Below the pieces are notes generated by a model, which saw only the letters and a list, made by a program, of their open reading frames with translations, was not told the origin of the DNA and did not search any database. From the IMG/VR virus record IMGVR_UViG_3300024348_000012: DNA of 64,000 nucleotides; one strand, 5' to 3'. This stretch comes from a virus (taxonomy: Duplodnaviria > Heunggongvirae > Uroviricota > Caudoviricetes). Positions 28,870 through 56,015 of the stretch are shown here, piece by piece; within the stretch, counting starts at the first letter, position 1; the number at the start of each line of letters is the position of its first letter. Both the position numbers and the translations under genes were made by a program.

Positions 28870-30327
28870 ATGAAGGCAGTATTAATATCTACGGATTACA
28901 TTAAAACAGCAACGGGTGAATATAAGGTTTTAGAAATAAATACAAGTACAAGAATCGTAGCGGCCGATAATGAAGGAAATCTACCGGGATTAGACTGGTC
29001 AAATCTAACTACCTTTATCCAAACTAATGGATTTACAAATGTACATTGTATAATACCAATGTACGATAAAGGGTTTGCAACTAAATTAAGTGAAATATGT
29101 GATAACATTGGTGGAATTACATTTCTTTCACATGAAACAAGTGGTACTTCAATTACTGTTCCATATATTGAAGATAACGAAACTACTCTTATTTTGAGAG
29201 TTTCATATGATACTACTGCAATTGTTGATGATGAGTATTGTAGAGATAATTATTCTTTCTTAAGAGCAATTAATGAATTAACAACAAAACCAAAAACTTA
29301 CATACCAAACATATCCGACGATTTTGAAAATTTATCAGAATTTAACTATACATTAGATTTACCGAATTTTATTATTAAAAAACGATATCCAAATTATGAT
29401 AAAAATGAATTCCCTAAATTATATAAAGTACAAAATTTAACCGAACTAACACAATTAAAAGGGTTAGTTAATGTTAATACGGAATTTTTACAAGAATTTA
29501 CAAATTCAGAAATTCTATCAAACAAAAGAAGTATTATCAGAGGAATTGATATAATATATGGTTCTAATTTAGATGTAATTAGTATGGGTGGATATAAAGT
29601 ACTTCATGCAATCACAGAAAATATATGGAGTAACACATTTGGAGATTTAGGACTATTAGCTAAAAAAGATAGACCAAAATATATTACATATTACTCACCA
29701 ACATCCGATAGAGCTACATATATTTACGATGAAGACCAAGAAGTTTTAATGGCGGATGGTAGTAGAAAATCATTTGCGGAATTAGAAGTGGGTGATTCTG
29801 TAAAATCAATAAATATCCCATCATTACCAGTAAATGAGACCGAATATAAAGTGGAGGAGTGGACAGGTAGTCATACTGATTTCACTACAAATTTTGCAGT
29901 TAGTGAAACAGCTATTGTTGTAAAAACTACACAAACAACATCTGATTTATTTATTAGAATTACATTAGAAGATGATATTGTATGGGATGATTTACCCGTA
30001 ACCCACCTTCTTGTTAAGAATGATGATGTTATAAGATTTAAAAATGTTAACAATTTGCAAATTGGTGATGTATTAGAATTATTTAGTACGGAAACCGAAA
30101 CTATTGTAAATAAAACAATTACTAATTTAGAAATATTATTTAAAGAAAATGAAGTAGTTGGAACTATGGATGTTGAACCTTTAGATTTGTTCTTACCATT
30201 AGTAACAAACTCATTCGCTATCGTTCAACACAATGCATGTAATGCAAACTTTTGTTCAAGTTTCGGAGGACAATGTTACAATTATGGTAAATGTGGTGAT
30301 TGTGGATATTATCAATGTGCTAAATAA
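28870..30327 (+). CDS. Hint (intein/pretoxin-HINT-like) domain protein with C-terminal 30-aa six-Cys tail
   Basis: Residues about 292-455 show Hint blocks: N-terminal VLMADGSRKSFAELEVGDSV (the Cxx[DG]T...G...I.eL..GD.V pattern with Val at position 1), TGSHTDF, and C-terminal MDVEPLDLFLPLVTNSFAIVQHN (blocks F/G ending in HN). Followed by ACNANFCSSFGGQCYNYGKCGDCGYYQCAK. Confidence 0.5.
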   Translation: MKAVLISTDYIKTATGEYKVLEINTSTRIVAADNEGNLPGLDWSNLTTFIQTNGFTNVHCIIPMYDKGFATKLSEICDNIGGITFLSHETSGTSITVPYIEDNETTLILRVSYDTTAIVDDEYCRDNYSFLRAINELTTKPKTYIPNISDDFENLSEFNYTLDLPNFIIKKRYPNYDKNEFPKLYKVQNLTELTQLKGLVNVNTEFLQEFTNSEILSNKRSIIRGIDIIYGSNLDVISMGGYKVLHAITENIWSNTFGDLGLLAKKDRPKYITYYSPTSDRATYIYDEDQEVLMADGSRKSFAELEVGDSVKSINIPSLPVNETEYKVEEWTGSHTDFTTNFAVSETAIVVKTTQTTSDLFIRITLEDDIVWDDLPVTHLLVKNDDVIRFKNVNNLQIGDVLELFSTETETIVNKTITNLEILFKENEVVGTMDVEPLDLFLPLVTNSFAIVQHNACNANFCSSFGGQCYNYGKCGDCGYYQCAK

Positions 30328-30494
30328 AAAATATTAATTATGGAAATTATACAAAACGAAATCGTTGAATTAACAATTACAGAGAAATCAGAAATTGCAA
30401 CAATATTTCAAAATATTATAACAAATATAAAAACTGATATTACAAATCAGTAAAAATATTTGGTAATTCAATTTTTTTTTATTATATTAGTGTT

Positions 30495-30770
30495 ATGGGA
30501 TTTAATTTAAAAACTATATCACAATCTTGGTTTGATTCGTACTTTGGTACCGATTCTCAAAGGGAATTGGCTAAAGAAAGATTAGGCATATGTGAAACTT
30601 GTCCGTCAAAAAAAGAACTTTTTAAGAATCAAAATTGGTCAGTTGTATGTGGTGAATGTGGTTGCCCAATTAATAAAAAAATATTTTCTAAAAAAATAAA
30701 AGAATGTCCATTGGACAAATGGAAAGAAGTTGATTCTAATTCTATTATTTTCTCAAAAAAAGTTATATGA
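30495..30770 (+). CDS. Cys-rich zinc-ribbon-like small protein
   Basis: CETCPS...CGECGCP...KECP. Confidence 0.45.
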   Translation: MGFNLKTISQSWFDSYFGTDSQRELAKERLGICETCPSKKELFKNQNWSVVCGECGCPINKKIFSKKIKECPLDKWKEVDSNSIIFSKKVI

Positions 30771-31264
30771 TAGAATCCATATATGGTTTTTTAAATGATG
30801 TGGAATTGAGTTTAGTAGATACATTTTGTTTAAATTTTAAACAAGAAGATAATCCACGTCCCACTAATTATTACAATAGAATGTTTCTAAATAAAGAAAC
30901 AGATTTAATTGATTATCAAAATAAAATAAAGAACCACTTATTCCAAAAATATGGTATTACATATGAAGTAGAAGGTATTTGGATAAATAAAGTAACACCA
31001 GATACAAATAAAGATGACGAATTTCATTTAGATAATAATGCGTTAACAATCGTTACTTATATAAATGATAATTTTATAGGAGGGGAATTTGAATATTTTA
31101 TATTAGGAATTAAACCAAATCAAAAAATAAATCCAAAAAGAAATTTAAGTTTAATTACAAACGATAAATTACCACATAGAGTATTGCCTGTAATTACAGG
31201 AGAAAGATATTCAATTGTGGTTTTTTGTGTTATACCAAATAAAGATAAAAAAACAATGTTATGA
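30767..31264 (+). CDS. 2OG-Fe(II) oxygenase, prolyl-4-hydroxylase-like
   Basis: HLD (HxD), GGEFEYF, second His PHRVLPV, and GERYSIVVF (the 2OG-binding Arg-x-Ser). Confidence 0.6.
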   Translation: MIESIYGFLNDVELSLVDTFCLNFKQEDNPRPTNYYNRMFLNKETDLIDYQNKIKNHLFQKYGITYEVEGIWINKVTPDTNKDDEFHLDNNALTIVTYINDNFIGGEFEYFILGIKPNQKINPKRNLSLITNDKLPHRVLPVITGERYSIVVFCVIPNKDKKTML

Positions 31265-31875
31265 TAAAGATTAATATCAACAATGAAATTGATATATATA
31301 AAACTACATTAGATTTTAATTCAAATTTTGATAAAAATTTATTTATTGATAAATTAAAAATTGTTGATACATTAGTAGATGCGTCCCTTCCAGCTAAAAA
31401 AACACCAGGTAGACAAGCCGCTTTATCTGAAATGTATATGCCTGAATTAAATTTTATAAAAGATAATATATCTAATTTATTATCAACGGAATTTAATGTT
31501 AGTAATAATTTTATTATGAAAACATGGGTTTATTATAGTGATAGTGATAATGGTTATAGTGGATACCACACACACGAAACATTGCACCCAAGGCCAACAA
31601 CGGCCGTTGGTAAGGTAAAAACGAATTATACATTTACATATTACCTACAAATGCCAAATAATCTTAAAAATGATGAAGGAAAGTTATTTTTAAAAACGAA
31701 ATCTGGATTTGAATTTGGTATATTACCAGAAGAAGATGATGTTTTTATATTCCCGGCCGACCTAGAACATAGACCTGAAACCAATCCCAATTCAACTAAA
31801 TCCAGAATTGTTATTGCCGGTAACACTGCTTTTTTTGATGAACATTTGAGAAAAACAGAAAAAAGCGTTTTATAA
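31261..31875 (+). CDS. hypothetical protein (possible cupin/oxygenase-like)
   Basis: His-rich motifs YHTHETLHP ... DLEHRPE ... RIVIAGN; weak. Confidence 0.35.
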   Translation: MIKININNEIDIYKTTLDFNSNFDKNLFIDKLKIVDTLVDASLPAKKTPGRQAALSEMYMPELNFIKDNISNLLSTEFNVSNNFIMKTWVYYSDSDNGYSGYHTHETLHPRPTTAVGKVKTNYTFTYYLQMPNNLKNDEGKLFLKTKSGFEFGILPEEDDVFIFPADLEHRPETNPNSTKSRIVIAGNTAFFDEHLRKTEKSVL

Positions 31876-33075
31876 ATGAATATCGTTATTGTAGGAGGAG
31901 GAACTGCCGGATGGATTACTTCTTTATTTTTACTTTCAGAATATAAAAATAGTAATATCACAGTTATTGAAAGTGATGTTATTGGTATATTGGGTGCAGG
32001 AGAAGGCTCAACACCACTAATGAAAAAATTCTTAAAGAAATGCAATATTGATGAAAACGATTTCATTAACAAAACGAAATCTACTTTTAAATTGGGTATT
32101 GATTTTGAAAATTGGAATGTTTGCAACAAATCGTATAAACATCCATTTATAAATGATTCCAAAGCATATCATTTTGATGCAAGACTAATTGCAGAATATT
32201 TTAAACAAATATCAATTAATAGAGGTGTAACTCACATAAATGGAATTGTAAAATCTTTTGTTCAAAATGATAAAAAAGATATTACCAATTTGGTATTATC
32301 GGATGATACAACAATACCAACTGATTTTGTATTTGATTGTTCAGGATTTCATAGATTACTAATCGGGAAATTATATAATTCAAATTGGGTTTCGTATTCA
32401 AATCATTTAAAAGTAAATACGGCCGTTCCATTTTTCTTAGATAGAACGGATACTAATATGGAATTGGATACCAAAGCAATTGCGATGGATTATGGTTGGA
32501 TGTGGCAAATTCCATTACAACATAGATGGGGATGTGGGTATGTATTTGATGGTAATAGAATAAACGAAATACAGGCCAAAGAAGAAATTGAATTAAAATT
32601 AAATAGAAAAATACAATCACCAAAGACATTAAAATTTTCAGCAGGTTATTATGATAATGTGTGGGTTAATAATTGTATTGCTATGGGATTAGCTAGTGGG
32701 TTTTTAGAACCATTGGAAGCAGTATCAATCCACATTACACTTATGGAATTGAATTTAATTAAAAACCATTTATTTAAAGATAACGATACTAATATAGTTA
32801 ATGAAAAATTTTCACAAATAATGGATGAACATTTTTTATTTATATATTATCATTATTTGTGTAATAAAAAAGATACAGAATTTTGGTCAGATTATAATTT
32901 GATTAGTGCACCATTGGAGTTACACAAATTTGTTAAAAAAGATTTAAACATATCGTTTAGTTCCGATGAGGATTATATTTCTAAATTCAAATATAATGAT
33001 GTTGTACAATATACACACTACGATTGGAAACTTATAAATGATGGAATTTTTGGTTTAAATAAATCTTTATTATGA
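31876..33075 (+). CDS. flavin-dependent halogenase (tryptophan-halogenase family)
   Basis: MNIVIVGGGTAGWITS (FAD GxGxxG), ITVIES...ILGAGEGST, the signature YGWMWQIPL (WxWxIP), and AMGLASGFLEPLEAVSIHI (the halogenase GxxSGFxEPLES block). Confidence 0.8.
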   Translation: MNIVIVGGGTAGWITSLFLLSEYKNSNITVIESDVIGILGAGEGSTPLMKKFLKKCNIDENDFINKTKSTFKLGIDFENWNVCNKSYKHPFINDSKAYHFDARLIAEYFKQISINRGVTHINGIVKSFVQNDKKDITNLVLSDDTTIPTDFVFDCSGFHRLLIGKLYNSNWVSYSNHLKVNTAVPFFLDRTDTNMELDTKAIAMDYGWMWQIPLQHRWGCGYVFDGNRINEIQAKEEIELKLNRKIQSPKTLKFSAGYYDNVWVNNCIAMGLASGFLEPLEAVSIHITLMELNLIKNHLFKDNDTNIVNEKFSQIMDEHFLFIYYHYLCNKKDTEFWSDYNLISAPLELHKFVKKDLNISFSSDEDYISKFKYNDVVQYTHYDWKLINDGIFGLNKSLL

Positions 33076-33440
33076 TTGAAACAATAAACATAAATACCAA
33101 ATTATATGTCAAATATATTGATAATATAAAAGGATTTGGTGTATTTGCAAATCATATAATTAAAAAAGACGAAATTATTGAAGATTGTTATTCTTTATTA
33201 ATTCATAATACAAATTCGGATTACGAACCTTATTATTTTTATTTTAAAGGTGACACTAAATTATTACCATTAGGATTTGGTTCTATTTATAACCATAACA
33301 ATAATCCAAATATAGCTTGGAAAATCGTAGATGATAATCGTAAAATAATTAGATTTTATGCAATAACCGACATCAATATCAATGAGGAATTGTGTCATAA
33401 TTACGGCCCTAATTATTGGAAAAATAAAAATATATTATAA
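33072..33440 (+). CDS. SET-domain protein methyltransferase
   Basis: GFGVFANHIIKKDEIIEDC...IYNHNNNPNIAW...NEELCHNYGPNYW (SET N-region, NHxCxPN-like and ELxxxYG post-SET-like motifs); about 120 aa as in viral vSET. Confidence 0.55.
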   Translation: MIETININTKLYVKYIDNIKGFGVFANHIIKKDEIIEDCYSLLIHNTNSDYEPYYFYFKGDTKLLPLGFGSIYNHNNNPNIAWKIVDDNRKIIRFYAITDININEELCHNYGPNYWKNKNIL

Positions 33441-34123
33441 TGAATACACTTTGGACATTTGGTGATAGTTTTACATTTGGTCATGGTTGTAGAGAAGATT
33501 GTAATTCATATACCGTAGATGATTATTATGGTTACAAAAAAGAAGGAGATGACATCTGGCCCAACCATTTAGGTAATTTGTTAAATTGTAAGGTTAGTAA
33601 TTTAGGAAAAAACGGAGTATCAAATGATTATATTTTAGATGCAATAATAGATAATTTTGATTTTATAAAAGAAAATGATTATATTATAATAGGAAAAACA
33701 TTCCATGGTAGAATTGAAGTACCTTTTAATAATAAAATTTATAAATCCTTTGCACATTATGAGGGTGGTAAGATAGATGAAAATACTAATAGTAAAGATA
33801 TATGGATAAAAAATGAATTTAAAGATTTAAACAAAGAAGTGATAGAAACAATTATTAATTTTCAATATTATTTTTCAAATGAATTATTTTATAAAGAACG
33901 AAATAATAAAAGATTTGAATTTATTAAGAATAGATTGCATAATGAAAAAAATGTAAAGTTTTCTTATATATGGGGAATAGAAGAAGATAAAAATTTTTAT
34001 CACACATTTCAACAAATAATACAGGCAACTAATGGCAAAGTAATTGATACACATTTTTCTTTTAAAGGTCACTTAGATTTTGCACATTTTATTTATAATA
34101 AAATTAATACCAAAATAATATGA
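33440..34123 (+). CDS. SGNH/GDSL-family hydrolase
   Basis: N-terminal TFGDSFTFGHG (GDSx block I), conserved Gly/Asn blocks and a distal DxxH-like motif. Confidence 0.55.
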   Translation: MNTLWTFGDSFTFGHGCREDCNSYTVDDYYGYKKEGDDIWPNHLGNLLNCKVSNLGKNGVSNDYILDAIIDNFDFIKENDYIIIGKTFHGRIEVPFNNKIYKSFAHYEGGKIDENTNSKDIWIKNEFKDLNKEVIETIINFQYYFSNELFYKERNNKRFEFIKNRLHNEKNVKFSYIWGIEEDKNFYHTFQQIIQATNGKVIDTHFSFKGHLDFAHFIYNKINTKII

Positions 34124-34665
34124 TTAAAAAAAAATTGGGGTTTACAACATATTGTTATGATGAATTTATAACAATAGAAGAACAATCTGAAATTAAAAAA
34201 TGGGCATTAGATAATGAAAATAAAATGCCACCGAATATGTCTGGCCCGTATAGAAGATTTAGTAGATTGGATAGTTTTAATAATATACCGAATATAATAC
34301 ATACTATAAAACAAAGAGTTATAGATGTTGAAAATATAAAAAATGTAATGGAAGCACCACAAAATGCCGATTGGGTAGGTATTCAATGGGAAAATGCCTT
34401 TGTTGAACCACATTTAGATGACAATGGCAACAATAAAAATTATTATACCAGACGATATAATATACTAGTATCATATCCTGAAGAAGGAGGCCAACCTATA
34501 TATGGTAATGAAATTTTAGAAGTTAAAGAAAGAATGATGTGGAGATGTGATGCGGGTTTAATTGAACATTCTAGTATACCAAATAAAGGAAAAATACCTA
34601 GAATTAATTTGTCTTTTGGATTTTTAATGCCAATAAAAACTACAACTAAAAAATCTTTATTATGA
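34120..34665 (+). CDS. 2OG-Fe(II) oxygenase, P4H-like
   Basis: EPHLDD (HxD), GGQPIY, IEHSS (distal His), RINLSF. Confidence 0.55.
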   Translation: MIKKKLGFTTYCYDEFITIEEQSEIKKWALDNENKMPPNMSGPYRRFSRLDSFNNIPNIIHTIKQRVIDVENIKNVMEAPQNADWVGIQWENAFVEPHLDDNGNNKNYYTRRYNILVSYPEEGGQPIYGNEILEVKERMMWRCDAGLIEHSSIPNKGKIPRINLSFGFLMPIKTTTKKSLL

Positions 34666-35222
34666 TATATCAACAAAAAATATTTACAAAAGAGGAATGT
34701 CAAACCATAATAGAGTACCATAAAAAATATACCGACTTGGAAGGTTGGTTTCCCTCAAAATACATTGACGGCCAACGAATAAAAGATAACCACAATCTAA
34801 TGGCATATGAAGTATATAATATACTTAACAATGCAGAAACAAATTGGTTTTTTGTAAAATTATTTAATTGGTTTAGTGAAGTTAGCGGAATTAAAATTGA
34901 TGAAACTAATAAGTTACCAAAATGTACCTTACACAGATATACCATTGGTGACCATTTTGCAAAACATATAGATTTAATGAAGGGATACGAAGAAAGAAGA
35001 TATAATTCAGGCATACAACTGAATGATGAATACGATGGTGGTGAATATGTGACTTGGGATGCGCTGGGTAAGGAAATATTAATATCAAAAGAACCTGGCA
35101 CAGCTGTAGCGTACAGTTCTACAGTTGAACATGAAATAAAAGAAATAACAAAAGGAGAGAGATGGTCTATTGTGATGCCCATAACAAAATACAATATAAT
35201 TGAAAAGAAAAGTTTTATATAA
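34662..35222 (+). CDS. 2OG-Fe(II) oxygenase, P4H-like
   Basis: KHIDLMK (HxD), YDGGEYVTW, VEHEIK, GERWSIVMP. Confidence 0.6.
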   Translation: MIYQQKIFTKEECQTIIEYHKKYTDLEGWFPSKYIDGQRIKDNHNLMAYEVYNILNNAETNWFFVKLFNWFSEVSGIKIDETNKLPKCTLHRYTIGDHFAKHIDLMKGYEERRYNSGIQLNDEYDGGEYVTWDALGKEILISKEPGTAVAYSSTVEHEIKEITKGERWSIVMPITKYNIIEKKSFI

Positions 35223-35893
35223 TGTCAATATTAATTAAAAATGATATAATATGGGTTTCAATTCCAAAATGTGCATCAATGTCAATAGAGGATGCGTTGT
35301 TGAATTCTAAGTTGGACATAGAGAGACATTCCTATGCAATTAAAAGTGAACCACTACATACACACATTGGTATCCGTAAATTAAAAGAAGAATTTGGTGA
35401 TAAAAAAACTATATGTATAAAAAGAGATTGGTTTGAAAAGTGGGTAAGTGCCATTCAGTTTTGTTTTGAAACCATAATACCAACCGATGGAAATCTACCA
35501 ATCAAAAAATGGGAAGATATTGATAATGATTTTATTTATTCAATATTTACGGATGAATTTATAAATTTATTATATTCCGAAAAAACGGATTCATTAAATG
35601 AGTGTTATAGTAGATTGATTGTAAATGGAAAAGTAACAGAAACAAATAGATTGTCCGTACTATTTTCCCAAAATTATTGGAAAGAGGATAACAAATGTGA
35701 TTATGAATTTGACATAAAAGATATGGATAAATTTGTTTCTTTCATAGAACAAAAATATGGGGAAAAATTAATAATTCGTAAAATAAATGAAAATCCAAAA
35801 ACAAAAAGTAAATTAGTTTTAAATGATGAACTAAAAGAGTTTATTTGGCAAAAGTTTGAAAAAAGATTTTCTAAAAAAAGTTATTTATTATAA
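35222..35893 (+). CDS. sulfotransferase-like protein (putative)
   Basis: N-terminal IIWVSIPKCASMSIEDAL resembles the PAPS 5'-phosphosulfate-binding loop (PKxGxT) of Sulfotransfer_2-type enzymes; weak. Confidence 0.35.
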   Translation: MSILIKNDIIWVSIPKCASMSIEDALLNSKLDIERHSYAIKSEPLHTHIGIRKLKEEFGDKKTICIKRDWFEKWVSAIQFCFETIIPTDGNLPIKKWEDIDNDFIYSIFTDEFINLLYSEKTDSLNECYSRLIVNGKVTETNRLSVLFSQNYWKEDNKCDYEFDIKDMDKFVSFIEQKYGEKLIIRKINENPKTKSKLVLNDELKEFIWQKFEKRFSKKSYLL

Positions 35894-36384
35894 TGTTTAC
35901 TAAAGAAGAATGTGAAAGAATAATTTATTTAGCTCAGTCATCTTTAGTGGATTCTAAATTATATTTTAAATATGATGATAATATAAAATATAAAGTATCT
36001 AATATCAAAAAAGATGAAACTACGGATTGGATATTTGATAAAATGCTTGTATTTTTTACAAACAGAACTGGTATTAAAATAAAAAAATCATTGAATATTT
36101 TACATGTTCACAATTATAAAACAGGAGATTATTTTAAAAAACATAGAGATGATTTACACCCAACACAAATACACAATATAGGTGTTTGTTTAAATGATGA
36201 TTATGTAGGTGGTGAATTTATTTTATATGAACCATATGAAATATTACCAAAAAAACAAGGTGAGATATATACATTTGAAAGTTTAAGATTACATGAAGTT
36301 AAAAAAATAGAAAGTGGTGAAAGATGGAGTATAATTGCATTTTTACATAATGAAAATTTAGAACTAAAAAAAACACTATTATGA
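35893..36384 (+). CDS. 2OG-Fe(II) oxygenase, P4H-like
   Basis: KKHRDDLHP (HxD), YVGGEFILYEP, LRLHEVKKIESGERWSIIAF. Confidence 0.6.
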   Translation: MFTKEECERIIYLAQSSLVDSKLYFKYDDNIKYKVSNIKKDETTDWIFDKMLVFFTNRTGIKIKKSLNILHVHNYKTGDYFKKHRDDLHPTQIHNIGVCLNDDYVGGEFILYEPYEILPKKQGEIYTFESLRLHEVKKIESGERWSIIAFLHNENLELKKTLL

Positions 36385-36914
36385 AAATCGGTATAACTGG
36401 ACACTCTAAAGGATTGGGAGAAGCAATTTATAATAAATTAAATAAAATGAATGAAGTTATTGGATTTAGTAGAACAAATGGATACGATATTCAATCACCA
36501 AATAATATAATAGAAAAATTAGAAAATTGTGATATTTTTATAAATAATGTGTATTATGAAACCCATCAATCTAATTTATTTTTTAAATTATTTCAAAAAT
36601 GGAACGATTTAGAAAAAACGATAATTAATATAAATAGTAGTTCTATACATCAATCGGGCGCATGGAATCCTTTATATGTTGCAAACAAAAAACATTTAAA
36701 AGATATTACACAATCTCTAATTGATAAATACCCACAGAAAAAATGTAGAATTATTAATTTAAATTTGGGTACATTAGATACACATAAAAACTTTGAAACT
36801 TTTAATAAAATCGAAGTATCTAAAGTTGCGGAAGTAGTGGAATGGTGTATAAATCAACCACATGGTATTGAAATACAAGAATTAACAATATTACCAACAA
36901 CACAACTAAAATAG
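36381..36914 (+). CDS. short-chain dehydrogenase/reductase-like NAD(P)-binding protein
   Basis: MKIGITGHSKGLGEAIYNKL (TGxxxGxG Rossmann motif); short (177 aa). Confidence 0.45.
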   Translation: MKIGITGHSKGLGEAIYNKLNKMNEVIGFSRTNGYDIQSPNNIIEKLENCDIFINNVYYETHQSNLFFKLFQKWNDLEKTIININSSSIHQSGAWNPLYVANKKHLKDITQSLIDKYPQKKCRIINLNLGTLDTHKNFETFNKIEVSKVAEVVEWCINQPHGIEIQELTILPTTQLK

Positions 36915-36943
36915 ATGTTATTGACACTTGAAAAAATAATAAT

Positions 36944-37762
36944 ATGAAAATTTTAAAATATTGGAAGCCTGACGGGTTTGAAATTTCCTCTTACAAATAC
37001 TCATTAAAAGAAAAAGCAAATCAAATACATACAACGTGTGGTGAAGATAATACTAATCTATGTACCTACACCTACAATGAATTAGGATTTAGGGGTGACA
37101 GTATAAAAAAAGAAGGGTTTAAGGTAATGTCATTAGGTTGTTCAATTACCGAAGGGGTTGGTGTAAATGATAATGAAACGTGGACATCTCAATTCACAAA
37201 TTTAGTACCAAATTCAGTAAATTTAAATTTTGGTGTTTGTGGTAGAAGTAATGATTTTATAGTAAGGTGTTTGTTAAGTTACTATGATTTAATTAAACCA
37301 GATTTGGTATTAATTATGTATACATACTCAACTAGAAAAGAAATATATACAAATGATGGGGGAGTTGAACCATATATGGCAACATCTGCATGGGGATATA
37401 TGCAAGAAACTGAAGATGGTAGACTTATTCAAAAAAATTTACTTGAAATACAAAACGATAATGAAGATTTTATAAATTGGTATAAAAATCATCAATTGAT
37501 AAAATTATTTTTAGAATCTAAAAAGTGTAATTTTATTTGGAATGGTAGTTTGATTCGTTCTAATTATAAAGATGAATTTAGATATGATGGTGATTTTTTC
37601 TTAAATGTATTAGATAAAGGAGTGGATAATAAACATGCAGGCCCAAAACACCTTAAAAATTATGCAACAAAGTTATACGACCATATCAATAATAATTTTC
37701 CTCATTTTTTATTAAATGATAAAACTAAATTAAATATTAAAAATAGTAATAAATTAATATAA
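36944..37762 (+). CDS. SGNH-hydrolase-like protein (putative)
   Basis: FKVMSLGCSITEGVGVN resembles SGNH block I (GDS replaced by GCS); distal His near C-terminus. Confidence 0.4.
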   Translation: MKILKYWKPDGFEISSYKYSLKEKANQIHTTCGEDNTNLCTYTYNELGFRGDSIKKEGFKVMSLGCSITEGVGVNDNETWTSQFTNLVPNSVNLNFGVCGRSNDFIVRCLLSYYDLIKPDLVLIMYTYSTRKEIYTNDGGVEPYMATSAWGYMQETEDGRLIQKNLLEIQNDNEDFINWYKNHQLIKLFLESKKCNFIWNGSLIRSNYKDEFRYDGDFFLNVLDKGVDNKHAGPKHLKNYATKLYDHINNNFPHFLLNDKTKLNIKNSNKLI

Positions 37763-38323
37763 ATGGTAATTACAATCCTTGCAGAACCAAGAAGTGGTTC
37801 AACTAATTTAGCTAATTGGTTTTATTTTAATAAAGACTTTACAATATTATATGAACCAATTACCAGTCCAAAATGGAAATGGTATAAGCATGGTGTATCA
37901 CCAAAATTATGGGAATATAACACTTCTCATTTATTAGTTAAAGAAATTTTTAGACCAGAAACAGATTTTTCTGAATTAATAGAAATATCTGATAAGGTAA
38001 TTATTTTATATAGAGAAAATATAATTGAACAAACCGAATCTTGGTTAAATGCTAATAAAACAAATAATTGGGATAAAGCATGGGTATTTAAAGAAAATTT
38101 AATAAAAAATGAGGATGCATCATATTTTAATCAAATAAAATCCGGATTAAAAGAAAATTATTTGAATAAAGATTATTTTAATATATCATACGAAGAATTA
38201 TATTATAATAATGGTTTTGAAAAAATATTAAATTATTTAAATATAGACGAATTAGAAAATAAAAACTTTCCTTACGGAGAGAAATATAGAATAAATGTTA
38301 ATAAACCAAATACCTTAATATAA
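37763..38323 (+). CDS. sulfotransferase (Stf0/Sulfotransfer_3-like)
   Basis: MVITILAEPRSGSTNLANWF matches the PAPS-binding PRSGST(T/L)L 5'-PSB loop; size about 190 aa, typical of Stf0-type. Confidence 0.5.
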   Translation: MVITILAEPRSGSTNLANWFYFNKDFTILYEPITSPKWKWYKHGVSPKLWEYNTSHLLVKEIFRPETDFSELIEISDKVIILYRENIIEQTESWLNANKTNNWDKAWVFKENLIKNEDASYFNQIKSGLKENYLNKDYFNISYEELYYNNGFEKILNYLNIDELENKNFPYGEKYRINVNKPNTLI

Positions 38324-38384: not shown

Positions 38385-39032
38385 ATGAAACAAAAGACAG
38401 AACAAGAATTGAAAGCAAATTATGACCGATTTATAGGTATAATTAAGAAGTATTTTAAAGGAGAAAGATTGGAGAAATTACTCCATATGTATTCCGAAGA
38501 AGAATTGGGTGTAAATTTAACCCTATCACCGGCGTCCGGCTCAAAACACTATCATAATGGGTATATAGGTGGGTATATTGACCACATCTTTAATGTATGT
38601 AAGAACGCTCTTAAAATGAGAGACCTGTTCGTAATGCAAGGTGGAGAGATTGATTTCACCGAAGAAGAATTGATATTTAGTTGTCTACATCACGACTTAG
38701 GAAAGTTGGGTATTAAAGGTGAATTACATTACCTACCAAACCAAGAAGAATGGTCTCAAAAGAAATACGGAACTTTATTTGTTCGTAATGAGAAGATACC
38801 TTATATGACTTTAACCGATAGAACTTTCTTTACACTAAACGACTATGGTATTACTTATAATGAGAAAGAGTATTTTGCAATCAAACTTACTGATGGTATG
38901 TATGACGAAGATAATCAAAAGTATTTAGCAGGTCACGACTTAAAGAAACAATTAGTTTATAAGTTACAATTTATTATGCATTGGGCAGACCATATGTCTA
39001 CAATCATTGAAAGACAAGATAACGTAATTTAA
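38385..39032 (+). CDS. HD-domain phosphohydrolase
   Basis: HYHNGYIGGYIDHIF ... LHHDLGKLG (H...HD...D metal-binding motifs). Confidence 0.65.
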   Translation: MKQKTEQELKANYDRFIGIIKKYFKGERLEKLLHMYSEEELGVNLTLSPASGSKHYHNGYIGGYIDHIFNVCKNALKMRDLFVMQGGEIDFTEEELIFSCLHHDLGKLGIKGELHYLPNQEEWSQKKYGTLFVRNEKIPYMTLTDRTFFTLNDYGITYNEKEYFAIKLTDGMYDEDNQKYLAGHDLKKQLVYKLQFIMHWADHMSTIIERQDNVI

Positions 39033-39152: not shown

Positions 39153-39530
39153 ATGTACATGATTGATTACAGTAAGTTATTTGAAGAGTTCTTTAATGAA
39201 CCAAAAACAACAACTTATGTTCCAAACAAATTCGCAGTAGACATTAAAGACGAAGTCGCGAGTATTGCACTATCAGTATTAGGACACAACCCAGAGGATA
39301 TTGAAATTAATTGCTTTGAGGACAAGATTGAAATTAAAGCTAAAAAAACACAAGAGGATAAAGAAAGTCCTTTTAATCAATTGGTTTCGGATATTGAAGA
39401 AAGAATCCAAGTAGGCAAAAACTTTGATGGTAAAAAAGCAAAAGCTGAGATTAAAAATGGAATTCTCTTAATTACACTTGAAAGAAAAGAAGAGTCCAAA
39501 CCAAAAAAATTAACCCCAAAATTAGGTTAA
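39153..39530 (+). CDS. small heat-shock protein (Hsp20/alpha-crystallin domain)
   Basis: AVDIKDEVASIALSVLGHNPEDIEINCFEDKIEIKAK ... AKAEIKNGILLITLERK (the ACD AxxxNGVLxIxxPK-like end). Confidence 0.55.
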   Translation: MYMIDYSKLFEEFFNEPKTTTYVPNKFAVDIKDEVASIALSVLGHNPEDIEINCFEDKIEIKAKKTQEDKESPFNQLVSDIEERIQVGKNFDGKKAKAEIKNGILLITLERKEESKPKKLTPKLG

Positions 39531-39555
39531 TTCAGTTATTTTTTGTATATTACAA

Positions 39556-39586
39556 AGGTAGAAGAGTCATTACTTCTACCTTTTTT
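39556..39586 (+). terminator. rho-independent terminator
   Basis: GGTAGAAG-agtcatta-CTTCTACC followed by TTTTTTT. Confidence 0.6.
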
Positions 39587-41595: not shown

Positions 41596-42243
41596 ATGAA
41601 ATTAATAGTTGATAAGGGTTCTAACGGACTAACAACAAAAGAGTTTGTGGAGTATCTAAAAACTCCTGTATTAAAGTCAGAAATTACACAGCAAGAAGCT
41701 GATGAGTTAAGAAAACAATTAGAACAAGGATTAAGTGAATATCCAGGTTTAGGCATTTCAGCAACTCAATTAGGAATTAAAAAGAGAGCTTGTTATATTA
41801 AATTTGGAGAAGAAGAAGATATTACAGAATTATTTTTGTTAAATCCAATTATTAAAGAAAAATCTAAAGAAGGGTTTCTTTTTATGGAAGGGTGTTTATC
41901 AATTCCATCTTCACTTACAAAACCAACTAGAACTATTAGAGCTTGTAAAGTCGTAGTTGATACTGATAACTTGGGTGAACTAACATTTGAAATTAATCCA
42001 GAAGGTGACAAAGCAAATGAATCAATATCAAAAGAAACAATGATGACCGTTATAGTTCAACATGAAATTGACCATTTAGACGGATTTACAATTAAAGATA
42101 GAGTTTACAATACTCAGGTGGTGAAAAAAGTAGATTTTGGTAGAAATGAAAAAATTGTAATGAAATCAAAAGAAGGTGAGATGGTTGAAGTTAAATTCAA
42201 AAATGCAAACAAATTATTTTTACAAGGATACGAAATCGTTTAA
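41596..42243 (+). CDS. def: peptide deformylase
   Basis: All three PDF motifs are present: GLGISATQLG (GxGxAAxQ), MEGCLSIP (EGCLS) and VQHEIDHLDG (QHExDHLxG). Confidence 0.8.
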   Translation: MKLIVDKGSNGLTTKEFVEYLKTPVLKSEITQQEADELRKQLEQGLSEYPGLGISATQLGIKKRACYIKFGEEEDITELFLLNPIIKEKSKEGFLFMEGCLSIPSSLTKPTRTIRACKVVVDTDNLGELTFEINPEGDKANESISKETMMTVIVQHEIDHLDGFTIKDRVYNTQVVKKVDFGRNEKIVMKSKEGEMVEVKFKNANKLFLQGYEIV

Positions 42244-43201: not shown

Positions 43202-44899
43202 ATGATACAATTAGGTTTATCCGCATTTTACCACGATTCAGCAGCAGCTCTGGTTATAGATGGTAAAGTTATATGTGCAATTGAAGAAGAAAAACTATCC
43301 GGTGAAAAGCATGATAGTTCTTTTCCGTTTAAGGCAATTCAATGGTGTTTGGAATACACAAAGATAACAATTGATGAAGTTGATATGGTTTGTTGGTATG
43401 AAAATCCAAATGATAAATTTGAAAGAGTTAGAGAAACGATTGGTAAGTGGGGTGGATTAAGATTTCCAATGAAATGGAGACAATTCTTAAAAAGATGGAA
43501 TCAATCGGAAGGTAATTTAAAAGGAATATTAAAATCAATTGGATATGATGGAGAAATTTTATATTCATTACACCACCATTCACATTTAGCACTATCTTAC
43601 TACACATCACCATTTGATAAAGCAATAGGTTTATCAATTGATGGAGTTGGTGAATCGCATACGATATATGCAGCAATGTGTGATGAGTTGGGTTTTCATA
43701 AAATACAAACATTACACTTTCCTCATTCGTTGGGATTGATTTATTCAGCATTTACTGCTTATTTAGGATTTAAACCAAACGAAGGTGAGTATAAAGTAAT
43801 GGGACTTGCTCCATATGGTGATAATCAAAAATATAATAACATATTTGATAAAGTTGTTACTACCGGTGGTGAAATAGACATTGTAAAGATGGATATGTCT
43901 TACTTTACATGGCATACATCGGATAACGATATGTTTAATGATAAGTTAATTAATTTAATTGGATTCCCTCCACGTTTTAAAGATGAACCAATTGAACAAC
44001 ATCATAAAGACTTAGCTGCTTCATTACAAAGGTGGTATGAAAGTGCATTATACTTTATTATCAATAGAATTACAAATACTTGGGAATGTGAGAATTTAGT
44101 ATTAGGTGGTGGTTGTGCATATAATGGAACTGCTAATGGTAAAATTAAACAATTCACTGCAATTAAAAATGTATTCATTCCATTTGCTCCATCAGATAGT
44201 GGTTCTGCAATTGGTGCATGTTTATATCATTATCATCAAACATTTGGTAATCCCAAAGTAAAAGGTGGGGATAACCAATCACCATATTTGGGTGAGGAGT
44301 GGAGTAGTCCTGAATTACTTAAAATTATATTACAAAATCATAGAAGTAAGGTTGTAATGTATGATACCGATGATGTATTATGTAAAGAAGTTGCAAAGTT
44401 AATCAATGAAGGTAATATTGTAGGATGGTTTCAAGGTAGAACTGAATTTGGTGCAAGAGCATTGGGTAATCGTTCTATATTAGGTAATCCACATTTGTCC
44501 GACATTAGAGATAGAATTAATAAGGTTGTCAAAAAGAGAGAAATGTTTAGACCATTTGCTCCATCGGTTACACATGAAGATTATCAAAAGTATTTCCTGT
44601 CAGAAGAAGATGTTCCTTATATGAATCAGGTTGTCAAAGTTAAAAAGGATGTAAACATTCCGTCAGTAACGCATGTTGACAATTCTGCAAGGATACAGAC
44701 ACTTAAAAGAGAGGATAACCCACTTTACTATGACTTATTAAAGGAGTTTGAGAAACTAACAGGAACACCCATTCTATTGAATACATCGTTTAACTTAAAA
44801 GACCACACAATGACAAATGACCCACAAAAAGCAATTTGGACATTTCATAATTGTGACATGGATTATTTAGTATTAGGTAAATTTTTAATCAGCAAATAA
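43202..44899 (+). CDS. carbamoyltransferase (NodU/CmcH/TobZ family)
   Basis: N-terminal MIQLGLSAFYHDSAAALVIDGKVICAIEEEKLSGEKHDSSFP matches the Carbam_trans_N signature; 565 aa as expected; His-rich metal site HHHSH. Confidence 0.8.
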   Translation: MIQLGLSAFYHDSAAALVIDGKVICAIEEEKLSGEKHDSSFPFKAIQWCLEYTKITIDEVDMVCWYENPNDKFERVRETIGKWGGLRFPMKWRQFLKRWNQSEGNLKGILKSIGYDGEILYSLHHHSHLALSYYTSPFDKAIGLSIDGVGESHTIYAAMCDELGFHKIQTLHFPHSLGLIYSAFTAYLGFKPNEGEYKVMGLAPYGDNQKYNNIFDKVVTTGGEIDIVKMDMSYFTWHTSDNDMFNDKLINLIGFPPRFKDEPIEQHHKDLAASLQRWYESALYFIINRITNTWECENLVLGGGCAYNGTANGKIKQFTAIKNVFIPFAPSDSGSAIGACLYHYHQTFGNPKVKGGDNQSPYLGEEWSSPELLKIILQNHRSKVVMYDTDDVLCKEVAKLINEGNIVGWFQGRTEFGARALGNRSILGNPHLSDIRDRINKVVKKREMFRPFAPSVTHEDYQKYFLSEEDVPYMNQVVKVKKDVNIPSVTHVDNSARIQTLKREDNPLYYDLLKEFEKLTGTPILLNTSFNLKDHTMTNDPQKAIWTFHNCDMDYLVLGKFLISK

Positions 44900-45675
44900 T
44901 GAAACTACACGCATTTGGAGATAGTTGGACAGAAGGAGAAGGAACCAACTGGCCGATAGAACAATCATTTAAAGACAGAAAACAATTACAACTATTTAGA
45001 AATGAAAGTAGTTGGGTAAACACTCTTGCCAATAAATTAGGATTAGAACCTGTAAATAATGGATGGAGTGGTAAAGCAAATAATGTTATTTTTAATGAGG
45101 TTATAAATGATTTAAGAAATGGTAAAATTCATAAAGATGATTTTGTTGTTATCATGTGGAGTTCATCGTTAAGAGATTATGTTCCATTTTTACCAAAAGG
45201 TGAATGGATAAGTTGGGGACAAATGGAATTAGCAGCCTTGCCACATAAGTTTACAGAATCATACACATATGGAGATGAAAAGTTTAATAATTTTTTGGCT
45301 GAGTATAAAAAATTCTTTTTAGGAAATTTATTTACACAAAATTATTATAACATAATAAATCAAAACTATATAATTTATTTACAACATATGTTAAATGAAT
45401 ATGGTGTAAAATATATTATGTGTGATGCATTTGATTTAATGATTCAAAATTTGGATAAAAAGGATGATAACACTTATTTAATTAATAAATCAACATATTG
45501 GGGGTTTGCAAACGAATCTTTGGAATTATGGTTAATGAAAAACTTTAAAGGTGAAGATGTTTGGGAAAAGAAAATTCCAAACCCAATGAAAGTTGCACAA
45601 CACCCCAACGAAGCTGGATACCAACTGATAAGTCAGGAACTTTATAATTATATAGTAAAGAACAACATAATATAA
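44899..45675 (+). CDS. SGNH/GDSL-family hydrolase
   Basis: MKLHAFGDSWTEGEG (block I GDSx), internal Gly/Asn blocks, C-terminal QHPNEAG (DxxH-like region). Confidence 0.55.
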   Translation: MKLHAFGDSWTEGEGTNWPIEQSFKDRKQLQLFRNESSWVNTLANKLGLEPVNNGWSGKANNVIFNEVINDLRNGKIHKDDFVVIMWSSSLRDYVPFLPKGEWISWGQMELAALPHKFTESYTYGDEKFNNFLAEYKKFFLGNLFTQNYYNIINQNYIIYLQHMLNEYGVKYIMCDAFDLMIQNLDKKDDNTYLINKSTYWGFANESLELWLMKNFKGEDVWEKKIPNPMKVAQHPNEAGYQLISQELYNYIVKNNII

Positions 45676-47318: not shown

Positions 47319-48284
47319 ATGAATTTTGATTCATTTAAACATAGTGAAAGTGCATCCTGGACTGATTTTTATATCAATATGTTAATTGGTATGTCAAAAG
47401 TTAGAAGTATCCAAAAACTAACGATTGTAGAAAAATCCGGTGAAAGTATTACAAATACTATATTTGATAATCCATTAGCAGAAACTTTGAAAGACGAATT
47501 AAATATGTTTATGTTTGCACATGAACTTGCAGATGAATATGATTCTGTAATTAGAGGTGGTGGAGGTACTATGCTAAGTAATTTGGCGGTTGAGTTTGGA
47601 AACAAACAATTAATGCAGGATACTTTATTTGGAATATTACAAGTGACCAACATTTCAGATACTAAAACATTATTGGATAATATCGGACTTGCAGTCAAAG
47701 CTTATTGGATGGCTGCACAATTATCAACGATTAAAACACCAATTATACCATGCATTGGGTCAGTAAAAAATTTAAGAACAATCACCGGTCAATGTATTTT
47801 TCCTGGTATATGGACACCAATATTAGTAGAACCTGTTACACCATTTTCACCATTTTTAATGAGTTTTATTGCATCGGCAGCATTACATCTATTAACATTA
47901 ACAGGTTATATTGAATGTTTTTGTCAATATCCTCCACCTGCACCTCCTGCACCTGGAATTCAACCATGGGTGGGATATGTAGTAAAACCAATATCAAATC
48001 CATCCGCAGTATTAAAGAATGCGGCGAGAACTCCAAATTTAGTTTTGAATTCTTTGGCAATAGGATTTGATGCATTGGGAGACGTTACCGAAGGAGATGA
48101 TACGGAGTTTTTAGAATCAATAAAAAATTTACCACAAGCTATACAAACCGCATTAACTTCTACATATCAGGATGATAAGGCTAGAGAAAAAATCAAAGAA
48201 GTAGAATTGGCCTTGAAAAAAGAGAAAGAAGAAAAGGAAGCACTTGCAAACGCATCACAAACCCAAAATATTACTATTGGGTAA
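47319..48284 (+). CDS. hypothetical structural protein
   Basis: 321-aa ORF with a PPPAPPAPG Pro-rich linker. Confidence 0.45.
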   Translation: MNFDSFKHSESASWTDFYINMLIGMSKVRSIQKLTIVEKSGESITNTIFDNPLAETLKDELNMFMFAHELADEYDSVIRGGGGTMLSNLAVEFGNKQLMQDTLFGILQVTNISDTKTLLDNIGLAVKAYWMAAQLSTIKTPIIPCIGSVKNLRTITGQCIFPGIWTPILVEPVTPFSPFLMSFIASAALHLLTLTGYIECFCQYPPPAPPAPGIQPWVGYVVKPISNPSAVLKNAARTPNLVLNSLAIGFDALGDVTEGDDTEFLESIKNLPQAIQTALTSTYQDDKAREKIKEVELALKKEKEEKEALANASQTQNITIG

Positions 48285-54704: not shown

Positions 54705-56015
54705 ATGAGCATTAAAAAATATACAAACATTGAACAAATAAATCTTAATAAACAAAATGTAGGACAATTTATAGAAGATAAGGATTTATTTATTATTGCA
54801 AAAAATGAAACAGTTACATCTACCTTTGGTGATAATTCATATGATACAATGGAAGTATCCGTTTATGATATAAACAATAATTTATTACCACAAAAATCAG
54901 GAAATAATGTTTCTTATATAAAAACGGGAGATATTAAAAATTATATGTATAATGTTACAAATAAAAATGGTACAAAAGAAATTGCGATTGATGCTGAAAA
55001 ATTATTAAATGATTTGGGGTTTACCAATGGAATTCTCAAACTTAATATAAATTTTGTTAGAAATAAAGTTGGAAATAACAATGAATTATCGCGAGTATGG
55101 ATACAAGAAATATCTCCGTCAAGAGAAGAAATTCGTATTTTACCATTAAAAACAAAAAATGAAACAATAAATAAAATAACTAATTTAGAATTTGCAAATT
55201 TAAAAAAACAATATAAAACATTTGCAAATGTAAAACAAAATATTAACTTACAAATTTCTACATTTGAAAATAGTTATTTAACTAAAATAGATGATTATTT
55301 AAATACACAATTTGGAACAGATTATTTATTATATCTAAAAAAAGATTTTGGATTACAAAATTTTGATGATTATGTTAAAAAAATATATACGGATTTTAAA
55401 TCAGCAGTAAATAATTATTTAACAAACAAAAAATATAATATAACTTCAAGTGATTTTGGTAAAGTTGATGTTGTTAGATTTATTGATTCAGAAATATATA
55501 AAACAGAAGATATTGAAAAAGAAATTAATTTAATATTAATGGCATGTATTACAAAAAATCTACCGGATTTGAAACAAAGAACAATAGAAACTAAAACAAT
55601 TGAAAAACAATTTACAAATTCTCCAATAGATAGACTTACATTAGACACCACCAATGTACCTCCTATTATATCAAATAGAAAAATTATTACAATAACACCG
55701 AATCAAATTAGTTTTACAAAAATAGCAGGAGGTACTGGTACCAATTTACCTACACCTAAACCAAAAGGAACATTGATTACAACAATATGTAAAGGATTTG
55801 ACCAATATGAAACATACGCAGATGGAAATGGTGGTACATATGATACATTGATTAAGGTTAATTCTTTAACATGCGGATATGTTGCACCTACCCTCGGAGG
55901 TGGAACTGGAGGTGGAGGTGGAACTGGCGGTGGTGGGCGAGGTGAAGGTAGTGGAACTGGAGGTGGTGGACGAGGTGAAGGTTCAAATCCCGATGGTAGT
56001 AATGACGCAAAATAA
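54705..56015 (+). CDS. structural/fibre protein with Gly-rich C-terminal repeat
   Basis: 436 aa ending GGGTGGGGGTGGGGRGEGSGTGGGGRGEGS. Confidence 0.45.
   Translation: MSIKKYTNIEQINLNKQNVGQFIEDKDLFIIAKNETVTSTFGDNSYDTMEVSVYDINNNLLPQKSGNNVSYIKTGDIKNYMYNVTNKNGTKEIAIDAEKLLNDLGFTNGILKLNINFVRNKVGNNNELSRVWIQEISPSREEIRILPLKTKNETINKITNLEFANLKKQYKTFANVKQNINLQISTFENSYLTKIDDYLNTQFGTDYLLYLKKDFGLQNFDDYVKKIYTDFKSAVNNYLTNKKYNITSSDFGKVDVVRFIDSEIYKTEDIEKEINLILMACITKNLPDLKQRTIETKTIEKQFTNSPIDRLTLDTTNVPPIISNRKIITITPNQISFTKIAGGTGTNLPTPKPKGTLITTICKGFDQYETYADGNGGTYDTLIKVNSLTCGYVAPTLGGGTGGGGGTGGGGRGEGSGTGGGGRGEGSNPDGSNDAK
55899..55983 (+). repeat. about 30-bp tandem repeat (x2.5) encoding a GTGGGGRGEGS collagen-like motif
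   Basis: ggaactggaggtggtggacgaggtgaaggt units seen directly. Confidence 0.6.

Follow-up and report, generated by a model that had tools for sequence, protein, structure and literature searches.

Organisation of the locus

The 64,000-nucleotide stretch of viral DNA analysed here (the window; IMG/VR record IMGVR_UViG_3300024348_000012, Caudoviricetes) carries on its + strand, between positions 30767 and 36384, five genes for proteins with the fold of 2-oxoglutarate (2OG)- and Fe(II)-dependent oxygenases. They are interspersed with genes for other enzymes in an array extending from 30495 to 38323, and the array is preceded by a gene (28870-30327, hereafter the head gene) whose product ends in a short peptide containing six cysteines. 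Stop and start codons overlap or abut along the block 30495-36914, and no + strand terminator-like site was detected between 28870 and 39554, a strong terminator-like hairpin being located at 39554-39583: the proposal in the initial annotation of this DNA that the oxygenase genes are interleaved within one operon was thereby upheld. A promoter scan of the window gave no enrichment.

The window is AT-rich (GC ~29%), nearly all of its genes lie on the + strand, and the baseplate wedge protein coded for by the open reading frame (ORF) 49269-51293 indicates a tailed phage. The sequences closest to that protein (38-41%) were those of Microcystis phage Mel-JY01, Flavobacterium phage immuto and the 484-kb uncultured phage LR756508, and it assigns the phage to a sparsely sampled lineage distinct from the T4-like cyanophages. 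No DNA near-identical to the array region was found in cultured phages, and most of the large ORFs of the window have no PHROG match.

Four related loci were compared with the window: L001, of 15.8 kb, and L005, L002 and L009, which belong to contigs of 125, 320 and 252 kb, respectively. In each the flanks were those of the window and the theme of the array was kept while its gene content differed, additions among the four including more oxygenases, an Asp/Asn hydroxylase, radical-SAM/SPASM enzymes and APS kinase; a methyltransferase is also included in relatives' arrays. The content of the array is thus modular between genomes, and its flanks are conserved.

The five oxygenase-fold proteins

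Sequence profiles and structural models place all five proteins in the double-stranded beta-helix (DSBH) Fe(II)/2OG-oxygenase fold, of the broad P4H/PHD-like kind, and catalysis is predicted for them. Three exceeded the 27-bit gathering threshold of PF13640. The 165-aa product of 30767..31264 (+ strand; H87-x-D89, H137, R147; C-terminal tail ...DKKTML) scored over the cut-off with both PF13640 (29.2 bits) and PF03171 (26.5 bits), matched phrog_61 (3.7e-12), and was linked by jackhmmer to the other two (E 2e-27). These are the 186-aa product of 34662..35222 (+ strand; 45.1 bits; H102-x-D104, H157, R167; tail ...EKKSFI) and the 163-aa product of 35893..36384 (+ strand; 38.6 bits; H84-x-D86, H134, R144; tail ...LKKTLL). 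The nearest solved relatives of 34662 by sequence were the uncharacterised Burkholderia oxygenase 6n1f, P3H1 and PiuC/YbiX (E 4e-4 to 0.04), and alignment to 6n1f, P3H1 and PiuC brought the HxD, the distal His and the Arg-x-Ser into register. When 16 PF13640-type sequences of four related genomes were aligned, invariance after Met1 was limited to H102, D104, G126, G127, H157 and R167 (34662 numbering).

The 181-aa product of 34120..34665 (+ strand; H98-x-D100, H150, R161-x3-S165; tail ...TKKSLL) gave no Pfam or NCBIfam hit and comes from a family for which Pfam has no model, none of its 37 homologous clusters being Pfam-annotated; H98, D100, H150, R161 and S165 were invariant in an alignment of 21 members. 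Its AlphaFold2 (AF2) model had a pLDDT of 91, falling below 50 for tail residues 175-181, and a Foldseek search returned DSBH oxygenases alone (AlkB-family, AspH, WelO5, P4Hs and vCPH; E ~2e-5). The best two-way TM score was that of PBCV-1 vCPH (5c5t; 0.65/0.66), with AlkB, WelO5 and AspH equal to it by E-value.

The 204-aa product of 31261..31875 (+ strand; H103-x-H105, H170, R182; tail ...TEKSVL) is a divergent, PF13759-like DSBH oxygenase-fold protein. It remained below the Pfam thresholds (PF13640 18.1 and PF13759 16.5, against 27) and that of TIGR02466 from NCBIfam (13.9 against 62.5), and matched phrog_81, annotated as '2OG-Fe(II) oxygenase', at 1e-12; two of its homologs have precomputed PF13759 hits. 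An alignment of 14-15 sequences showed H103, H105, H170 and R182 to be invariant and no acidic residue to be conserved, from which it follows that the metal site differs from the classic triad. For its AF2 model (pLDDT 83.5) the leading Foldseek matches were 3bvc, 2rg4, PHD2 and the Pseudomonas P4H, with E-values of 5e-7 to 1e-5.

The arrangement HxD ... GG[E/Q] ... H ... R-x-S, which the initial annotation had read in 30767, 34120, 34662 and 35893, was confirmed by the alignments, and the 2-His-1-carboxylate triad is present in all four. Its weaker fifth candidate, 31261, also held up, being sub-threshold on Pfam, yet supported by the PHROG match and the oxygenase-fold model and possessing HxH rather than HxD; in profile alignment it kept the 2OG-binding Arg without a conserved acidic residue. 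The suggested profile search with PF13640 and PF03171 succeeded for 30767 (both models), 34662 and 35893 (PF13640), and did not for 31261 or 34120. The 2OG-binding position is occupied by Arg in all five proteins (R147, R182, R161, R167 and R144 in gene order of 30767, 31261, 34120, 34662 and 35893). Their description as paralogs applies to 34662 and 35893 (34% identity, BLASTP E 4e-24) and weakly to 35893 and 30767 (E 1e-5), the other pairs being undetectable by BLASTP, which rules out recent duplication as the origin of the five genes save for 34662/35893. No further oxygenases were found in the window using jackhmmer and hidden Markov models built in this analysis.

A C-terminal tail common to enzymes of unrelated folds

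Array enzymes of unrelated folds terminate in the same pattern, [K/N]-[K/S/T/N]-hydrophobic-hydrophobic-COOH, encoded within the final 4-6 codons of their genes. Twelve of the 13 genes between 30495 and 38323 end in two hydrophobic residues (SKKVI, KKTML, EKSVL, NKSLL, NKNIL, NTKII, KKSLL, KKSFI, KKSYLL, KKTLL, SNKLI and PNTLI), the only gene without the tail being that for a short-chain dehydrogenase-like protein (SDR). When the two residues before the hydrophobic pair were strictly required to be Lys, Asn, Ser or Thr, the pattern was present in 11 of the 13 array genes and in 2 of the 90 other ORFs of the window (Fisher p = 3e-11); the two outside matches were 44899-45675 and 8991-10079, one of which is a GDSL-like enzyme adjoining the carbamoyltransferase gene.

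In six relatives (L001, L002, L005, L009, L010 and L011), at least ten unrelated enzyme families are tailed, the types including oxygenases, halogenases, SET, GDSL-like, radical-SAM and DUF6734 proteins, a methyltransferase-oxygenase fusion and zinc-ribbon proteins. Most of the radical-SAM/SPASM enzymes carry the tail; the 411-aa one of L002 ends in ...NYFM. It is absent from the relatives' thymidylate synthase, carbamoyltransferase, APS kinase, SDR (untailed in L005 too) and head gene products, and also from two arrays without a nearby head gene, that of L007, which has a halogenase, and that of the cultured cyanophage S-SCSM1. Within 16 oxygenases of ~20-35% identity the tail Lys was nearly invariant, almost to the extent of the catalytic residues. 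The tail is borne on an extension of 10-12 residues that was unstructured or of low confidence in AlphaFold models, and homologs without it stop right after the last strand.

In the tails Ser is written with three different codons (TCT, AGC and AGT), and those for the hydrophobic pair differ in their first and third positions, which speaks for the peptide, and not a DNA motif, as the object of selection. A DNA or RNA junction signal, in which an A-run plus TTATTATGA would serve translational coupling, was considered and judged unlikely, other tightly coupled junctions of the window having no tail. The tail is kept at 37763, which 60 nt separate from its downstream gene, and in genomes with other junction layouts, and its spacing to the next start varies. 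From these sequence comparisons the tail is judged to be a peptide signal and not a nucleic-acid signal, and we infer that it marks the enzymes as one functional set docking to a common partner. Literature searches found no described counterpart, and we know of none.

The head gene and its six-cysteine peptide

The head gene (28870..30327, + strand) codes for a 485-aa protein comprising a conserved N-domain (aa 1 to ~280), a weakly Hint-like region (~284-455; nt 29719-30234) ending in an invariant Q-H-N, and a C-terminal peptide of 30 aa with six Cys (ACNANFCSSFGGQCYNYGKCGDCGYYQCAK; nt 30235-30324). Its family comprises 463 clusters at 90% identity and 536 representatives at 50%, all of them environmental (members include P0064-P0331), and no tblastn match to the head gene was found in 50,697 isolate phage records. 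In 22 diverse members H454, N455 and four of the Cys were invariant. The motif [QM]HN was present in 108 of the 120 family members listed, and 105 of these 108 full-length members have exactly six Cys after it, in a terminal segment 27-39 residues long. The sequence separating the Cys is hypervariable, and the +1 residue after the Asn is rarely a nucleophile, being mostly Ala, Leu, Gly or Pro.

For aa 284-455 the recurring weak database matches were to Hint and intein families only. The Hint-type matches of the window protein comprised Hom_end_hint (E 0.014) and Hint (E 0.037) from Pfam and an NCBIfam intein (E 1e-3 over 37 residues), the best E-value among the 22 family members being 6e-5; bacterial intein-like (BIL) and intein entries of the PDB matched at E 0.03-1.2, and hhalign against canonical inteins from within the family gave 52% over 37 columns. 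PDB profile searches with the N-domain returned nothing usable with regard to its fold; an ATP-grasp identity, suggested by one hit of E 0.045, was dropped.

Relatives carry additional domains that pass Pfam thresholds, including PT-HINT, Hint and Intein. In L002, P0171-P0179, P0188, P0195 and P0199 a canonical mini-intein (CF[IV]AGT ... VHN) follows the Cys-rich segment, some members possess two or three inteins in tandem, and in P0320 the peptide lies between the second and third Hint domains. In P0240, P0205, P0208 and P0209 the segment is followed instead by a Peptidase_S74 autoprotease (beginning SDIRLKENI), so that self-cleaving modules bracket the Cys-rich segment. The only property common to intein and S74 modules is that the chain is cut at their own N-terminus, and the strongest argument for release of the peptide, a comparative one, is therefore that two unrelated self-cleaving modules follow the same Cys-rich segment in relatives. 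On this reading of the sequences, the six-Cys peptide of the window is predicted to be probably self-releasing, by Asn cyclisation at the His-Asn. Literature searches found no Hint-released phage peptide.

Linkage of the head gene to a small ORF and to oxygenases

Gene order was compared in nine genomes spanning the head gene family: the window, L001, L002, L005/L006, L008, L009, L010 (S74 type) and L011 (tandem-Hint type). At least one 2OG oxygenase lies within three genes of the head gene in all nine, and in eight the order is head gene, an ORF of 37-50 aa, then an oxygenase or oxygenases within one to three genes. The exception is L002, in which an oxygenase lies immediately upstream of the head gene and none was recognised downstream.

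In the window the small ORF (30340..30453, + strand) codes for a conserved 37-aa product, MEIIQNEIVELTITEKSEIATIFQNIITNIKTDITNQ, without Cys, Pro or Trp. Always placed after the head gene, it has counterparts of 37-50 aa at the same position in the relatives (L001 5089-5202, L002 12569-12682, L005 9080-9193, L008 11525-11677, L009 11498-11611 and L011 3394-3531, together with L006 and L010), and could be a partner or an immunity factor of the peptide. The gene next in line codes for a Cys-rich zinc-ribbon-like protein of 91 aa (30495..30770, + strand; CxxC ... CxxCxC ... C; phrog_13558, 6e-9; tail ...SKKVI), homologs of which occupy the same position in L001, L005, L009 and L010, all of them tailed; such a protein, of 91-96 aa, usually accompanies the head gene and oxygenases in relatives. 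The first enzyme after this trio is a 30767-type oxygenase in the window, L005 and L009.

Other genes of the array and its flanks

Between the second and third oxygenase genes are located those for a flavin-dependent tryptophan-halogenase-family enzyme (31876..33075, + strand; PF04820, 1e-91; phrog_2928, 6e-94; tail ...NKSLL), a SET-domain methyltransferase-like protein (33072..33440, + strand; PF00856, 2.9e-13; tail ...NKNIL) and a 227-aa protein (33440..34123, + strand; tail ...NTKII). The last has an N-terminal FGDSFTFG motif and is GDSL-hydrolase-like by eye only, with no family match in Pfam, PHROG or NCBIfam; at its place in L005 is a 227-aa ORF of near-identical sequence, again by eye. 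A 223-aa protein with the motif IPKCASMS (35222..35893, + strand; tail ...KKSYLL) separates the last two oxygenases and resembles, by eye, proteins with an N-terminal IPRCA[ST] motif in L001, L002, L005 and L010, all tailed.

Beyond the oxygenases follow the SDR (36381..36914, + strand; PF00106, 4e-8; untailed, ending ...TTQLK), a weakly GDSL/SGNH-like protein (36944..37762, + strand; PF13472 E 0.011, under the cut-off; tail ...SNKLI) with similar N-terminal sequences, by eye, in L001, L002, L005 and L009, and a 186-aa protein with the motif EPRSGST (37763..38323, + strand; tail ...PNTLI) whose likenesses in L001, L002 and L005, by eye, have an N-terminal [EHL]PR[ST]GST and are all tailed. A sulfotransferase identity for 35222 and 37763 was unsupported, Pfam, NCBIfam and PDB giving no match and the only basis being the PKxxS and PRSGST motifs seen by eye.

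Radical-SAM/SPASM enzymes, of which the window has none, number one to three per related array, and the sites bearing them are L002 188-2685 plus upstream, L001 1804-3591 and 10207-11256, L005 17572-18618, L009 15763-16812 and L010 6718-8418. The downstream edge of the variable array is formed by a highly conserved 215-aa protein (window 38385-39032, L001 13169-13816, L009 19206-19913) with weak MobH/TraI-like (HD-domain) matches only (E 4e-4). Further in the 3' direction lie genes for HSP20 (39153-39530), a peptide deformylase (41596-42243) and a Nol/NodU-type carbamoyltransferase (43202-44899), the last being ~7 kb downstream of the array.

Proposed function and alternative explanations

In our preferred reading, to which a probability of roughly 0.45 is assigned, the tag-marked enzymes are a tailoring set that acts on the released six-Cys peptide of the head gene. 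The five unlike Fe(II)/2OG enzymes would then be part of a co-transcribed, modular tailoring array of an uncultured large marine myovirus, and each would hydroxylate or otherwise oxidise its own position on a peptide-derived substrate common to all. The candidate substrate is the ~30-aa six-Cys peptide at the C-terminus of 28870-30327, which would be cut free by Asn cyclisation at the His-Asn ending the Hint-like domain, and the tail would serve to dock the enzymes on a partner that they have in common, for which the N-domain of the precursor is the simplest candidate. The expectation of the initial annotation that several distinct enzymes imply several sites or substrates is in keeping with this scheme, and the peptide, which it had listed as a possible substrate, is now the best-supported lead as a candidate. 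The PF13640, SET and Asp/Asn hydroxylase families act mostly on proteins or peptides.

A number of observations weigh against such a role. In every profile test of the window protein the Hint-like domain of the head family was sub-threshold, and it is without an N-terminal nucleophile, starting ...DQEVLMADG with no Cys; since a +1 nucleophile is lacking in most members too, a Hint domain of this kind would be capable only of C-terminal cleavage by Asn cyclisation and not of splicing. The window peptide contains no Pro and no Trp though P4H-like enzymes and a homolog of Trp halogenases are encoded in the array, and across five genomes no correlation was found between Trp in the peptide and the presence of a halogenase. 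Cyanophage arrays of oxygenases and halogenases exist without a Hint-cargo gene, from which it follows that such enzymes do not in general need this substrate. The Cys-rich segment could alternatively be a structural zinc or disulfide knot, and a fibre protein could account for the association with S74. The tail resembles C-terminal recognition motifs of ClpX, e.g. MuA ...RRKKAI, and by that analogy could be a degron.

One alternative, unlikely in our estimation, is that a small secondary metabolite derived from an amino acid is tailored by the array through successive hydroxylation and halogenation together with methylation, acylation, sulfation or carbamoylation, the Hint-cargo protein being unrelated or a mere neighbour. 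In Syn9, Iyer et al. 2010 (PMC2938197) described ten dioxygenases, representing at least five families, in an array with two tryptophan halogenases; they predicted that a metabolite of amino-acid origin is hydroxylated and halogenated step by step, and argued for metabolite synthesis by phage dioxygenase and halogenase arrays. Taking at least three adjacent unlike dioxygenases plus a Trp-halogenase homolog as the mark of an array of this type, the window, with five from at least three families and a PF04820 match of 1e-91, holds one. The carbamoyltransferase, APS kinase and SDR of the window or its relatives would suit small-molecule chemistry, and both the arrays of L007 and S-SCSM1, which have no Hint-cargo gene, and the lack of a Trp/halogenase correlation with the peptide fall on the same side. 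Set against this, neither the window nor the related loci contain a recognisable scaffold-forming enzyme (nonribosomal peptide synthetase, polyketide synthase, ATP-grasp ligase or the like), the linkage to the Hint-cargo gene and small ORF extends to nine of nine genomes across deep divergence, and a common peptide tail is not seen in known metabolite pathways.

Modification of other proteins by the oxygenases, whether of the virion or of host translation factors or ribosomal proteins, in the service of host takeover or virion stabilisation, appears improbable. The PF13640/PHD-like folds would suit it, and a bacterial PHD-type P4H modifies EF-Tu, the Pseudomonas P4H/EF-Tu complex being among the structural neighbours found here; the SET domain likewise suggests protein lysine methylation. 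Within the window, the sole Pro-rich stretch in 103 ORFs is PPPAPPAPG, in aa 205-224 (PPPAPPAPGIQPWVGYVVKP) of the ORF 47319-48284, just upstream of the baseplate genes, and is a conceivable alternative prolyl-hydroxylase substrate. Against this reading, that short stretch is the only one, no conserved linkage to a substrate gene of this sort was seen, and the conserved head gene and the tail are left unexplained.

Auxiliary roles have been proposed for the 2OG oxygenases of cyanophages in nitrogen stress, through 2OG, or in DNA repair (Sullivan et al. 2010, PMC3037559; see also the S-SCSM1 paper, PMC9602691). Cyanomyoviruses typically have 1-5 copies and S-SCSM1 has 24, of PF13640, PF13759, PF13661 and PF05721 types (PMC3037559, PMC9602691), and many such genes, whose number the initial annotation had remarked on, are not unusual in marine phages. 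That the five genes of the window serve to lower or sense host 2-oxoglutarate, or act in AlkB-style alkylation repair, is very improbable. Foldseek did place AlkB-family structures near 34120, but the likeness is no better than that to P4H or AspH and no AlkB-specific family match was found in Pfam or NCBIfam; five unlike tailed enzymes among halogenase, SET and hydrolase-like genes also exceed the needs of a metabolite sink or of repair.

The initial annotation had drawn an analogy with chlorovirus P4Hs and collagen, and had named the Gly-rich repeat at 55899-55983 as a possible collagen-like substrate. This repeat, GGGTGGGGGTGGGGRGEGSGTGGGGRGEGS, is the C-terminus of a 436-aa protein (54705-56015) near structural genes, and it has no proline and no G-X-Y register; a scan of the 103 ORFs found no other G-X-Y runs. 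In L007 a far longer Gly-rich protein (6845-7891) adjoins the oxygenase array. Collagen-type P4Hs (C-P4H, algal P4H) carry Lys as the ligand of the 2OG C5 carboxylate, whereas PHD2 carries Arg. Collagen-type prolyl or lysyl hydroxylation of a collagen-like virion protein is thus scarcely credible despite the DSBH fold, and despite PBCV-1 vCPH (TM 0.65) being one of the closest structures to 34120, the window encoding no collagen-like protein and all five enzymes having Arg, not Lys, at the 2OG position.

Implications

Marine phages hold from a few to two dozen 2OG-Fe(II) oxygenase genes, and the roles suggested for these over more than 15 years extend from manipulating nitrogen stress and repairing DNA to making secondary metabolites. 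The oxygenase array of the window is itself ordinary for marine phages; what appear to be new are the Hint-cargo head gene, its linkage to the small ORF and oxygenases, and the common enzyme tail. The window supplies a concrete and testable substrate candidate in the form of a genetically linked, probably self-releasing Cys-rich peptide, while the tail provides a sequence handle by which phage genes may be assigned to the pathway irrespective of fold. Were the tail a recruitment signal, it would represent a novel principle for organising a pathway of several modifying enzymes; were the peptide both released and modified, phages could be counted among the makers of heavily modified disulfide-rich peptides, and Hint and S74 autoproteolysis would constitute a new release route for these. 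It is a more speculative step, possible and on balance doubtful, to suppose that widespread uncultured large marine phages (536 clusters) possess a novel viral peptide-maturation system in which the cargo peptide of a 450-aa carrier is autocatalytically excised, at one end by Hint-type Asn cyclisation and at the other, in certain lineages, by an intein or S74 module, and is modified by interchangeable, tail-recruited enzymes (oxygenases, a halogenase, methyltransferases, radical-SAM enzymes and others) to give a conotoxin-like effector or toxin, with the small ORF as its partner or immunity factor.

Comparison with known systems

The closest parallels to the array as a whole are those of cyanomyoviruses (the Syn9 gp49-region and S-SCSM1), which similarly present a run of distant PF13640/PF13759 oxygenases among Trp-halogenase homologs, and the nearest cultured-phage homologs of 34662 and 34120 were cyanophage genes annotated '2OG-Fe(II) oxygenase' (24-38% identity). 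The window array differs in having the Hint-cargo head gene and the common tail, both of which were absent from the two cyanophage-type arrays checked.

At the level of the individual enzymes, the PF13640 P4H/PHD/PiuC-YbiX hydroxylases share the HxD...H triad, the GG motif and the Arg-x-Ser in register, whereas the window enzymes are remote from characterised members (best PDB E 4e-4), small and single-domain (163-186 aa), and have the tail in addition. For 31261 the best structural neighbours were of the PF13759/TIGR02466 kind (3bvc and 2rg4), with the same H-x-H ... H ... R arrangement, although it scored below both curated thresholds.

In polymorphic toxins a pretoxin Hint domain (PT-HINT, PF07591) frees a variable C-terminal module, and a small immunity gene follows (PMC3417536). 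The head gene resembles these in its conserved N-terminal part, Hint-type domain or domains, hypervariable cargo and succeeding small ORF. It departs from them in that its cargo is a six-Cys peptide of ~30 aa and not of enzyme size, its first Hint-like domain has no N-terminal nucleophile, and its setting is a lytic-type phage with an array of modifying enzymes.

Peptides made on the ribosome and then modified post-translationally (RiPPs) and other modified disulfide-rich peptides offer a further likeness, in gene content: a hypervariable peptide on a Cys framework beside genes for a hydroxylase, a halogenase, a methyltransferase and, in relatives, radical-SAM/SPASM enzymes, with a conserved 'leader' and a variable 'core' within the head gene family. 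By comparison with RiPPs, the 'leader' is of 455 aa, release would be autocatalytic, with Hint (and, in relatives, an intein or S74) taking the place of a leader protease, and recognition would be via the enzyme tails rather than by a RiPP recognition element (RRE) binding the leader. Modifications of the kind envisaged have precedents on peptides and domains of similar design, in that AspH hydroxylates six-Cys EGF domains and conotoxins carry hydroxy-Pro, bromo-Trp and sulfo-Tyr.

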